Source: a virus (Duplodnaviria; Heunggongvirae; Uroviricota; Caudoviricetes). Taken from it: a stretch of 7,391 bases of DNA. The translations under genes and the position numbers were made by a program. The number at the start of each line of letters is the position of its first letter. Positions within the stretch are counted from its first letter, which is position 1. Under the pieces are notes generated by a model. That model was given only the letters and a program-made list of their open reading frames with translations. It did not search any database and was not told the DNA's origin. Shown here one piece after another: positions 3,369 to 4,817 of the stretch. The stretch covers positions 1 to 7,391 of the IMG/VR virus record IMGVR_UViG_2695420724_000001. One strand, written 5' to 3'.

Positions 3369-3447
3369 GTTGATAGATCCAGTAATGACCTCAGAATTCC
3401 ATCTGGATTTGATTAGAACGCTCGGTCTTGCACACCGGGCGTTTTTT
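3369..3447 (+). ncRNA. oop: oop-like antisense RNA (~78 nt) ending in an intrinsic terminator (3419-3447)
   Basis: The + strand carries stem CGCTCGGT/ACCGGGCG (one G-U pair), 7-nt loop, then TTTTTTATT, antisense to the 3' end of cII. Arrangement and sequence resemble the lambda cII-O junction. The 5' end is inferred from the promoter only. Confidence 0.6.
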
Positions 3448-3690
3448 ATTGGTGATTTCATCAAGCGCATACTTAAAAGCTCTGCTAATCGGACTGATGT
3501 CTGATGCCATGCCAAAAGCACACAAGACCGAAGCTATAAACCTCCAGTCCGTTCTGCTTATCTTCGATTCATGACAGCCAATCATCTTTGCCAGACCGCG
3601 CTGGGTAAGCGTTGACAGGTTGATGAGTAAATCAGTTTCAGCGCGATCAACGTCGCGCTGTGATAGTTTGCTGTAACTTGTTCGTTCCAT
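3391..3690 (-). CDS. cII: CII-like transcriptional activator (99 aa)
   Basis: C-terminus ...ITNKKRPVCKTERSNQIQMEF resembles lambda CII (...TNKKRPAATERSEQIQMEF). The N-terminal part (HTH) is divergent. Position between cro and O. Confidence 0.85.
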   Translation of the reverse strand: MERTSYSKLSQRDVDRAETDLLINLSTLTQRGLAKMIGCHESKISRTDWRFIASVLCAFGMASDISPISRAFKYALDEITNKKRPVCKTERSNQIQMEF

Positions 3691-3700
3691 TTCTTAAGAT
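3668..3700 (+). promoter_or_regulatory. candidate pRE-like promoter with CII-binding-type direct repeats TTGC-N6-TTGT (3668-3681) and possible -10 TAAGAT (3695-3700)
   Basis: Tetramer repeats spaced by 6 bp on the strand opposite cII, inside cII codons 4-8, as for lambda pRE. The second repeat is TTGT rather than TTGC. Confidence 0.35.
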
Positions 3701-3775
3701 TTCCAATAGTGAATAGTTAGTTGAAAGGTATGCGTGGAAACGCATATGGCCTTAGTTGGTCAGATATCTTGGGAC

Positions 3776-3821
3776 TCGCTTTTCAGCGACGTAGGACGAA
3801 TGTCCGTTGTTACAAAGAGCG
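3776..3821 (-). promoter_or_regulatory. nutR-like site: boxA (3821-3807, CGCTCTTTGTAACAA), short hairpin (3805-3794), boxB hairpin (3789-3776, TCGCT-GAAA-AGCGA)
   Basis: Read on the - strand 10 nt after the cro stop. boxA is close to the CGCTCTTTAACAA-type consensus; boxB is a 5-bp stem with a GAAA loop. The same architecture recurs at nutL (6427-6471). Confidence 0.6.
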
Positions 3822-3831
3822 GCTCCGCTTA

Positions 3832-4047
3832 TTAAGCGGCTTTGTGCTCCGGCGGGAACACGTCATCAAGACTTACTTTTGCGCCTAACTTGTTTAGACA
3901 CGCAACAAGAGCACGGCATGTTTTAAGGTCTGGGAAGCGACGACCAGATTCCCAATGTCCGATAGCTCCCTGTGTGCATCCAACTGCCTTAGCAAGTGTT
4001 GTTTGAGAGATATTCAGTGACTCTCGATATTTTCGTAGGTTGCTCAT
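3832..4047 (-). CDS. cro: Cro-like repressor, XRE-family helix-turn-helix (71 aa)
   Basis: First gene of the rightward-equivalent operon, divergent from cI. GGAGG SD before ATG 4047-4045. HTH motif ISQTTLAKAVGCTQGAIGHWESG, whose recognition region resembles that of the adjacent CI ([11 protein letters not shown]). Confidence 0.8.
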   Translation of the reverse strand: MSNLRKYRESLNISQTTLAKAVGCTQGAIGHWESGRRFPDLKTCRALVACLNKLGAKVSLDDVFPPEHKAA

Positions 4048-4060
4048 ATGCCCTCCATAG

Positions 4061-4150
4061 TAACCACGAATAAAAAATACAATATGTACTTCTCAAATAC
4101 AAGTAAAAATACACATTGTGCATGGATGGTTCCAGTACAGAGCGTAATAA
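4061..4150. promoter_or_regulatory. OR region: divergent PR/PRM promoters and operator sites (exact hexamers not resolved)
   Basis: 90-bp AT-rich interval between divergent cro and cI. Three AATACA(A/C) repeats at 4076, 4096 and 4108, and a dyad TACA-ATA-TGTA at 4078-4088. The same motif recurs at OL. Confidence 0.6.
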
Positions 4151-4163
4151 TAAGGACATGAAA

Positions 4164-4817
4164 ATGAAATGGTATGAACTGGCTAGATCCAGAATGAAAG
4201 AGCTCGGCATAACTCAAGAGAAGTTAGCCGAAGAGCTAGGTATGACGCAGGGTGGAATTGGACACTGGTTGCGCGGATCTCGTCATCCATCTCTTAGTGA
4301 TATTGGTGTGGTGTTTAAATACCTTGGTATTGATAACATATCATTCAACCACGACGGGACATTTTCACCTGTTGGCGAATACTCATCGGCCCCAGTTAAA
4401 AAACAATATGAGTACCCTGTTTTTTCTCATGTTCAGGCTGGGATGTTCTCTCCAGAACTCAGAACCTTTACCAAAGGTGATGCGGAGAGATTGGTAAGCA
4501 CAACCAAAAAAGCCAGTGACTCTGCATTCTGGCTTGAGGTTGAAGGTAACTCAATGACCGCACCAACAGGTTCCAAACCTAGTTTTCCTGACGGGATGTT
4601 AATTCTGGTTGACCCTGAGCAAGCTGTTGAGCCCGGCGATTTCTGCATAGCCAGACTTGGTGGTGATGAATTTACCTTCAAGAAACTGATCAGGGATAGC
4701 GGTCAGGTGTTTCTACAACCACTAAACCCGCAATATCCAATGATCCCATGCAATGAGAGTTGTTCCGTTGTGGGGAAAGTTATCGCCAGCCAATGGCCTG
4801 AAGAGACGTTTGGGTAA
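4164..4817 (+). CDS. cI: CI repressor, LexA/S24-type autocleaving (217 aa from ATG 4164; alternative ATG 4158)
   Basis: C-terminal ~130 aa ([21 protein letters not shown]...[12 protein letters not shown]) matches recalled lambda CI, including the Ala-Gly cleavage site and Ser/Lys dyad context. The N-terminal HTH domain is not lambda-like. AAGGA SD 4152-4156 favours ATG 4164; the track start at 4116 lies in the operator region and is rejected. Confidence 0.9.

Follow-up and report, generated by a model that had tools for sequence, protein, structure and literature searches.

Did the immunity region of this prophage descend as one unit, or was it put together from pieces shared with different phages? 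The question is raised by a stretch of 7,391 nucleotides (nt), referred to here as the window, which makes up positions 1 to 7,391 of the IMG/VR virus record IMGVR_UViG_2695420724_000001 (Caudoviricetes). The gene order of the window is that of a lambdoid early region, reversed relative to the usual lambda map. The part studied, 3391-4817, holds cII, cro, the operator region OR and the repressor gene cI, and an earlier note, made from the sequence alone, had described it as a mosaic with junctions inside cII and inside cI. As comparison with known phages suggests, it is very probably the immunity region of a lambdoid prophage of the VT2-Sakai/Nil2/1717 type, a patchwork formed by recombination and joined on the right to O and P genes of the lambda/21 type.

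The patchwork can be read as a row of segments. Segment A (3351-3455), of the lambda/21 type, contains the block of the antisense gene oop and its promoter pO, together with the last ~21 codons of cII. It is followed by segment B (3456-3650), which is the body of cII and is common to 21, HK97, HK022 and 1717, and by segment C (3651-3822), of the 1717/HK97 type, with the 5' end of cII, the promoter PRE and nutR. Segment D (3832-4406) is the specificity module proper and comprises cro, OR and the DNA-binding domain of cI. The remainder of the cI hinge and the S24 domain form segment E (4407-4817), which is of the lambda/HK97 type.

Identity to lambda switches inside cII and inside cI

In a blastn comparison with lambda (NC_001416), the match at 1408-3455 was 98.5% identical and covered ren, P, O and the final 65 nt of cII, while the match at 4407-4813 was 93.4% identical and covered the 3' two-thirds of cI. 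The DNA between them, 3456-4406, gave no lambda match of any kind. The maximum chi-square test placed the breakpoint of cI at codon 82, that is nt 4407, where the identity passes from 0.395 to 0.931 (chi2 223), and that of cII at codon 79, nt 3455, where it passes from 0.447 to 0.881. Neither breakpoint was equalled in any of 500 permutations. When cI was followed in sliding windows of ten codons, its identity to lambda, 0.47 at residue 71, had reached 0.93 at residue 81. The identity switches at 3455 and 4407 are far beyond chance.

These results agree with the earlier note, in which CI was held to be lambda-like in its C-terminal autocleavage domain only and CII at its C-terminus only: the likeness begins at CI residue 82, taking in the remainder of the hinge and the S24 domain, and is confined in CII to the last ~21 codons, with the switch at 3455. 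The note was also right in assigning a non-lambda type to Cro, to the operators and to the DNA-binding domain of CI, as will be described below. Its suggestion that the breakpoints lie at domain linkers was borne out for cI, where the joint is in the hinge, and calls for refinement in cII, where the joint is no protein linker of the usual kind and marks the border of the conserved oop/pO sequence. Uniform alignment of the proteins to one known phage, which the note had set against a mosaic, was formally found, as 1717 has the same CI at every residue (100%) and cII is 98.5% identical to that of Lambda_ev245. The mosaicism relative to lambda nevertheless stands, because 1717 and Lambda_ev245 carry the same mosaic alleles.

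The two parts of the CI repressor

The cI gene lies on the + strand and likely runs from ATG 4164 to 4817, encoding 217 amino acids (aa) with an HTH_3 and a Peptidase_S24 domain. The listed open reading frame (ORF) opens at TTG 4116; the true start is likely ATG 4164, which has an AAGGA Shine-Dalgarno sequence 7 nt upstream and agrees with the annotation of phage 1717. The N-terminal part, residues 1-81 (4164-4406), comprises the DNA-binding domain (Pfam HTH_3, residues 9-56, E=1.9e-10) and the first part of the hinge. The C-terminal part, residues 82-217 (4407-4817), is of the lambda/HK97 type and comprises the rest of the hinge, with the cleavage site, and the protease domain (Pfam Peptidase_S24, residues 85-207, E=1.1e-28).

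In codon-aligned comparison with lambda, the N-terminal part is 21% identical in amino acids and 39.5% in nucleotides. The C-terminal part agrees with lambda CI 101-236 at 135 of 136 residues and in 93.1% of its nucleotides. In the PDB search, the N-terminal domain alone reached the lambda repressor at an E-value of about 0.003-0.02, and residues 82-217 aligned to lambda repressor 101-236 with one change, W129L. This sole protein difference of the C-terminal part, Leu at residue 110 (4491-4493) in the place of lambda Trp129, is also present in 1717 and is absent in 683R2. In the blastn panel, the nucleotide identity of the C-terminal part was 94.6% with HK97, 94.4% with mEp234 and 94.1% with HK544. 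It was considered whether HK97 cI might be a hybrid of lambda and another type, and this was dropped, as HK97 cI is of the lambda type throughout (99% aa in the N-terminal domain).

CI has the make-up of a repressor of the LexA/lambda-CI type, with an N-terminal helix-turn-helix (HTH) domain, an S24 domain with a Ser/Lys dyad and an Ala-Gly site in the hinge. Its Ala92-Gly93, Ser130 and Lys173 align with A111-G112, S149 and K192 of lambda. From its identity at 135 of 136 residues with the cleavage-competent lambda fragment 101-236, the repressor presumably undergoes RecA-stimulated autocleavage, leading to prophage induction. At the joint, residue 82 corresponds to lambda residue 101, inside the hinge and 11 residues before the Ala-Gly cleavage site, so that the shared block begins essentially at the start of the crystallised cleavage-competent lambda fragment 101-229 (2ho0/2hnf). 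The substrate, the protease and the cooperativity unit were therefore exchanged as a single piece.

The age of the cI joint can be judged from the relatives. Against 683R2, no significant internal breakpoint was found in cI (N-terminal part 95.5%, C-terminal part 91.4%; 71 of 500 permutations). Since there is no breakpoint against 683R2 and the same CI is present in 1717 (100%), the joint is old and ancestral to the whole immunity type.

Cro and the operators

The cro gene (3832-4047, - strand) encodes 71 aa with an HTH_3 domain (Pfam, E=4e-12). By BLASTP, the protein had no match to lambda Cro and no detectable similarity to it. The closest solved structure is 28tn_A, a 'lambda repressor-like protein' of 82 aa, matched over residues 1-69 at E=4.5e-17, and the next matches are P22 C2 (E=0.009) and the 434 repressor (E=0.25). 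Cro resembles the N-terminal domain of its own CI, with 35% identity over 62 residues (E about 1e-10 to 1e-12). Elsewhere, the identity between Cro and its own repressor is 52% in 434 and 37% over 30 residues only in P22, and no match is obtained in lambda. The proposal that this is an all-helical Cro, as in 434, holds for this HTH_3 protein, which is a paralogue of the CI N-terminal domain. The recognition sequences quoted for the two proteins, TQGGIGHW in CI and TQGAIGHW in Cro, were both found. The C-terminal motif DDVFPP of the closest solved structure, 28tn_A, is found also in the Cro proteins of BIS08P22 and mEpX1.

Putative operators with the core TACA-N3-YGTA are located in OR, between cro and cI, at 4078-4088, 4110-4120 and 4136-4146, and in OL, which lies outside 3391-4817 and is part of the same switch, at 6308-6318, 6341-6351 and 6366-6376. 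The degenerate pattern has 10 matches in the window where 3.0 are expected, and none of 200 shuffles reached 10. Eight of the 10 matches fall in the OR and OL clusters. The six cores correspond to the putative operators annotated by the depositors of Stx2 phage II (AP005154), and the core agrees with the epsilon34 consensus WTACRAWWTGTAT (PMC2629481). Both 683R2 and BIS08P22 have this core in OR and OL as well, the latter with the sites TACACATCGTA and TACAAATTGTA in control DNA that is not alignable with the window. The lambda operator consensus TATCACCGCCAGTGGTA had no match in the window at up to 3 mismatches.

The centres of the operators are spaced 32 and then 26 bp apart in OR, and 33 and then 25 bp in OL, in the same order on the + strand. 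The two arrays are therefore translational copies and not mirror images relative to PR and PL. The arrangement in 683R2 is alike, with spacings of 33/26 and 33/25. A PL-like promoter, TTGACC-17-TACTAT, is found on the + strand at 6352-6380 and is overlapped by two of the OL cores. PR and PRM must lie within the OR region, 4078-4146, where PR is placed by its position and by the depositor annotation of AP005154.

cII, oop and the nut sites

The cII gene (3391-3690, - strand) encodes 99 aa, and the product belongs to the CII family over its full length (Pfam PF05269 Phage_CII, residues 1-92, E=2.4e-33). As its sequence is read here, the gene is a mosaic of three parts drawn from closely related alleles. 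Codons 80-99 (3391-3455) are of the lambda/21 type, codons 14-79 (up to 3650) form the body common to 21, HK97 and 1717, and codons 1-13 (3651-3690) are of the 1717 type. The maximum chi-square test gave a breakpoint against 1717 at 3451 (0.967 to 0.709) and a marginal one against 21 at 3650 (0.75 to 0.953). At the sites that distinguish 21 from 1717, the window follows 21 up to 3441 and 1717 from 3651 onward. A cII without any internal junction was considered, as phage 21 matches 1408-3722 unbroken at 97.9% (ren, P, O, oop and all of cII), and was rejected, as the first 13 codons are of the 1717 type and the tail differs from that of 1717. The non-lambda part of the gene is in no way exotic, being of the 21/HK97/HK022/1717 type; the body, also common to 1717, is 89% identical to that of HK97, 87.5% to that of HK022 and 92% to that of mEp234. 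The same cII allele is already present in Lambda_ev245 (1408-3705, 98.5%) and in 2G7b (1408-4815, 98.0%).

The joint at 3455 borders the antisense gene oop. The promoter scan placed pO (TTGAGT-17-CATAAT with a TG) at 3333-3361 on the + strand, in a 33-bp block whose conservation among lambdoid phages has been described (PMC3349717). From the position of pO, the oop RNA gene would start at 3371 and extend over about 77 nt to 3448 on the + strand, so that it shares DNA with the 3' end of cII. The terminator scan found a hairpin at 3415-3445 followed by a T-run, and the 79-nt stretch folds as two hairpins (-24.8 kcal/mol, z = -3.6). In an alignment of seven phages, including lambda, 434, 21, 1717, HK97 and P22, the pO/5'-oop block is nearly invariant, and the identity of lambda and 434 to the window stops about 8 nt past the T-run of the terminator. 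At the aligned place, an 'oop RNA' is annotated in the 434 record OL657226, and the oop promoter and terminator in the P22 record. Rfam has no OOP model, and the assignment is based on the alignment, the scans and these record annotations. The sequence thus has the features of an OOP gene, namely pO with the 33-bp block and a predicted self-terminating transcript of ~77 nt antisense to the cII 3' end. The terminator loop has a 3-nt insertion of the phage-21 type, which gives the 'PVCK' in RPVCKTERS of cII.

By its sequence, the cII joint at 3455 corresponds to the classical lambda/21 boundary. The divergence of lambda and 21 'within cII left of oop' is at the same place, and it is at this joint that the C-terminal tail of CII, which is dispensable, begins (PMC3349717). 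A CII with the lambda-like C-terminal 18 residues was described for epsilon34 by Villafane et al. (PMC2629481).

A putative CII box, TTGC-N6-TTGT (TTGCTGTAACTTGT), lies at 3668-3681 on the + strand, in the 5' end of cII. It would form the -35 region of PRE, directed toward cI, and its position matches the CII sites annotated in 434 and 21. Between cro and cII, nutR (3778-3821, - strand) consists of boxA (CGCTCTTT, 3814-3821) and the boxB core (GCTGAAAAGC, 3778-3787). The second boxB core, that of nutL, is at 6460-6469 on the + strand, upstream of N; these are the two matches in the window, where 0.04 are expected. The nutR segment, 3723-3822, is of the HK97/mEp234 type and not of the 21 type. 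The outer stems of the two boxB sites differ, TCGC…GCGA in nutR and TGGC…GCCA in nutL, which is a compensatory change. The N protein is annotated as HK97-N-like in Stx2 phage II.

Distribution of the modules among phages

The feature is already known: published work and dozens of genomes in the sequence collections show its immunity type, domain-wise pattern and oop-edge boundary. At least 80% of 3391-4817 is covered at about 98% identity by at least 57 phage records, which include 1717, Nil2, Stx2 phage II, the Stx1 phage of Morioka V526, YYZ-2008, 2851 and the PA series. By tblastn, the CI N-terminal domain was at least 99% identical in at least 56 records, and 98.8% identical in VT2-Sakai, where cI is annotated as 'similar to CI repressor of bacteriophage lambda'. 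Its distant relatives, at about 50-56%, are phage L c2, epsilon34 and g341c, and further relatives at ~50% are SPN9CC and the repressors of Klebsiella, Vibrio and Pseudomonas phages.

The modules are shared in different combinations. The stretch 3832-4406, with cro, OR and the cI N-terminal domain, occurs only with the VT2-Sakai/Nil2/1717 immunity type. HK544 shares 4407-4817 only, and mEp234 and HK97 share this together with 3351-3822. In 683R2, 3832-4817 is shared at 93% of nucleotides, plus the short oop block only. Stx2a_F723 and Stx1_JNE122536 share all the sequence up to 3822 and then have a different cro and cI. Further joints lie at about 3351, 3650-3722, 3822 and 4817.

For the whole window, no phage record covers at least 80% in one place (best 68%), and neither does any of the 5,426 complete E. 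coli genomes (best 71%). What is new is, then, solely the combination of modules in the whole window, namely nin, the lambda/21-type O-P, the VT2-Sakai-type immunity and the interval between cI and N, which is of the 1717 type. Such a new combination is expected for lambdoid prophages.

The same domain-wise pattern has been described in the epsilon34/L/VT2-Sa/Nil2 repressor family, along with an operator consensus (PMC2629481). In another report, one clade of Stx-phage CI proteins is nearest to lambda CI, with 61% overall identity (PMC8951638). This is the value expected of a two-domain chimera of 21% and 99%. From the description of that clade as closest to lambda at 61%, the immunity type of the window is probably the Stx-phage CI 'Clade I' of PMC8951638.

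Comparison with known immunity systems

The window has the CI DNA-binding domain, Cro and operators of the VT2-Sakai/Nil2/1717 type. In VT2-Sakai, Nil2, Stx2 II, Morioka V526, 1717, YYZ-2008 and 2851, the cII-cro-OR-cI stretch is about 98% identical in nucleotides throughout. The CI of 1717 is identical over its whole length; in the N-terminal domain, identity reaches 100% with Nil2 and Stx2 II and 98.8% with VT2-Sakai. The downstream region to N is also alike in these relatives, with 98.8% identity over 3351-7317. They differ from the window on the replication side, where they have HK97-type gp53, O and DnaB-helicase genes and an HK97-type cII tail, …SPAATEDFKQIDMQF. The window, unlike them, has lambda/21-type O and P, and its cII ends in a 21-type tail, …RPVCKTERSNQIQMEF; the change of type falls at about 3441-3456. 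It is this cII-tail joint that sets the window, 2G7b and Lambda_ev245 apart from 1717 and Stx2 II.

Lambda CI shares with the window the cleavage site, the Ser/Lys dyad and the cooperativity surface, with W129L as the sole C-terminal change. RecA-dependent induction and cooperative or looping behaviour are presumably as in lambda, judging from this identity. The lambda repressor is 16 residues longer, with an N-terminal arm extension, whereas the window CI lacks the arm. Lambda also has 17-mer operators with centre spacings of 24/23, according to its record features, as against 32/26 in the window despite the shared cooperativity domain, and its Cro is of another fold class. The window does not belong to imm-lambda: there were 0 operator matches, 21% aa identity in the N-terminal domain and no Cro match.

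In 434, as in the window, Cro is all-helical, belongs to HTH_3 and is a paralogue of the repressor DNA-binding domain, from which its recognition helix hardly differs. On the right, 434 also has the lambda-type oop/O/P module of the window, and the homology of 434 to the window also stops at 3455. The differences are in the rest of the switch. The two Cro proteins align over no more than 32 aa, with 40% identity, the repressor C-terminal domain is 37% identical, and the 14-bp operators are of another type. With a repressor match at E=0.25 and no DNA match in 3456-4406, the window does not fall in imm434. It can fairly be said that the window resembles 434 in the design of the switch and not in its specificity.

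Phage 21 differs from the window in the first 13 codons of cII and in all that lies left of 3722, which includes nutR, cro, OR and cI, and has a P22-like cro and a c2-like cI. The same N-terminal domain family as in the window is found in epsilon34, g341c, BIS08P22 and phage L c2, at 48-56% aa. In epsilon34 and BIS08P22 this is combined with a C-terminal domain of the lambda family (about 80% aa) and with the same operator core. Cro is homologous in this group (43%). In the repressors of epsilon34, g341c, BIS08P22 and L, the C-terminal domain is 73% identical in nucleotides to that of lambda, as against 93% in the window. The divergence is large enough to make it likely that the immunity specificity of these phages is different from that of the window.

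Alternative origins of the joints

The contrast between the parts of cI and cII could arise without any recombination, if a single ancestral cI and a single ancestral cII had diverged in place, with the C-terminal parts held by purifying selection and the N-terminal parts changing fast. Repressor C-terminal domains are generally better conserved, and BIS08P22 is 80% identical in amino acids to the window in this domain and 48% in the N-terminal one. The cII tail is under a double constraint, as it also encodes oop (PMC3349717). Such a history would not, however, account for the leap in cI nucleotide identity, for which about 10 codons separate 39.5% and 93.1%, and it is contradicted by the silent sites. 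In the cI C-terminal part, the third codon positions are 81% identical to those of lambda and 46% to those of BIS08P22, whose C-terminal domain is 80% identical in amino acids and 73% in nucleotides to both the window and lambda. With silent sites near-identical to those of lambda, selection at the protein level alone is therefore insufficient to explain the likeness. The flanking modules, moreover, reassort independently in HK544, mEp234 and 683R2, and divergence in place is barely credible. It is also very improbable that the joints are recent and specific to this prophage, or that the sequence is an assembly chimera of two co-resident prophages, even though neither the phage records nor the complete E. 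coli genomes contain at least 80% of the whole window in one place. The cI joint is present in 1717 (100% of the protein), in Nil2, Stx2 II and many others (all three with the N-terminal domain as query) and in the 93%-identical 683R2, and the junction of the cII tail with lambda-type O is contiguous in the independent records 2G7b and Lambda_ev245. For 3391-4817, a recent or artefactual origin is already contradicted.

A patchwork formed by recombination thus accounts for the joints, and its polarity may be the reverse of what the comparison with lambda suggests. The C-terminal module would then be native to the L/epsilon34/VT2-Sakai lineage and the lambda/HK97 repressors would have acquired it, so that lambda itself would be the mosaic. 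This is a genuine possibility, though it stops short of being probable. This N-terminal type has long been associated with the C-terminal family, which BIS08P22 and epsilon34 also have, with about 80% aa identity (PMC2629481). Moreover, the distances among the C-terminal domains of the window, 683R2 and lambda/HK97 are roughly the same, with 91-95% of nucleotides identical. The lambda N-terminal type could, however, equally have a long association with the same C-terminal family. On the present data, the C-terminal domain may have been transferred in either direction, into this lineage or into that of lambda. Some further points weigh against the patchwork as it has been drawn here. The informative sites in 3456-3650 are few and mixed, which leaves the exact crossovers relative to 21 and 1717 uncertain. 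A sigma-70 consensus scan of 4048-4163 found neither PR nor PRM, and the count of CII boxes in the window is not above chance (2 versus 1.85 expected). Furthermore, the assignment of the operators, the cooperativity and the RecA sensitivity are inferred from homology.

Proposed working of the switch

By analogy with lambda and 434, CI dimers would bind the three cores of OR and the three of OL through the HTH_3 domain and repress PR and PL. Their cooperativity would be provided by the lambda-type C-terminal module, and they would be inactivated by RecA-stimulated self-cleavage at Ala92-Gly93, with Ser130 and Lys173 as the dyad. Cro, a paralogue with a nearly identical recognition helix, may bind the same operators as CI. 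In a similar manner, CII would activate PRE at the TTGC-N6-TTGT box, and would itself be subject to two limits, the OOP antisense RNA and proteolysis by way of the C-terminal tail. N would act at nutR and nutL.

The positions of the joints would fit such a switch. The joint of cI is in the flexible hinge, and the specificity module and the cleavage/cooperativity module can therefore reassort intact. At the cII joint, on the oop/pO edge, the conserved sequence may have supplied the homology for recombination, and it flanks the dispensable tail.

Neighbouring genes and other features

The remaining genes of the window complete the lambdoid early region. On the - strand are the nin genes and ren, followed by P (1761-2462, Pfam Phage_lambda_P) and O (2459-3358, Pfam Phage_rep_O), and on the + strand lies N (6498-6842, Pfam N_peptide). 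Between cI and N, an ORF of 173 aa (5319-5840, + strand) occupies the position of lambda rexA/rexB, with flanks at 4818-5318 and 5841-6300. PADLOC and Pfam searches with this ORF gave no match. Its sole match was to PHROG 2602 (E=3.5e-102), for which PHROG assigns no function. The ORF is kept in 1717 and in VT2-Sakai, where it is VT2-Sap23, and it is likely an accessory gene expressed from the prophage.

A block further downstream, 6142-6258, has 86.8% identity to lambda 35708-35826, the stretch between the end of rexB and OL, and a strong intrinsic terminator is found inside it (6142-6163, + strand). The block is probably the end of the cI-operon transcript, kept although the upstream genes differ. 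Rfam, run on the whole window in E-value mode, gave only two sub-threshold chance matches. One was to snR191 (E=0.38) at 2936-3018, on the TCCCTC-containing ori iterons in gene O, and was set aside as a false match produced by the replication-origin repeats.

Meaning for lambdoid phages

The region is a clean textbook case of modular phage evolution. The specificity module, made of cro, the operators and the cI N-terminal domain, moves as one unit. The cleavage/cooperativity domain of the repressor and the cII-oop-replication side are exchanged separately from it, the former at the hinge and the latter at the antisense-RNA block.

Prophages of the lambda/HK97 type and of the VT2-Sakai type are commonly co-resident in E. 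coli. Since the C-terminal module is 99% identical in protein between these heteroimmune types, mixed CI multimers are conceivable. As a speculation to which we attach rather little likelihood, such co-resident prophages could form mixed CI dimers or octamers whose DNA-binding domains do not match, by which lysogeny would be coupled or destabilised. The hinge would then be a recurrent exchange point, where the induction threshold and the cooperativity could be moved independently of immunity, with lambda possibly the recipient.

The analysis is also of value for annotation. From its sequence, the prophage should be homoimmune with Shiga-toxin phages of the VT2-Sakai/Nil2/1717 type. It should also be SOS-inducible like lambda, and should replicate with O and P of the lambda type.

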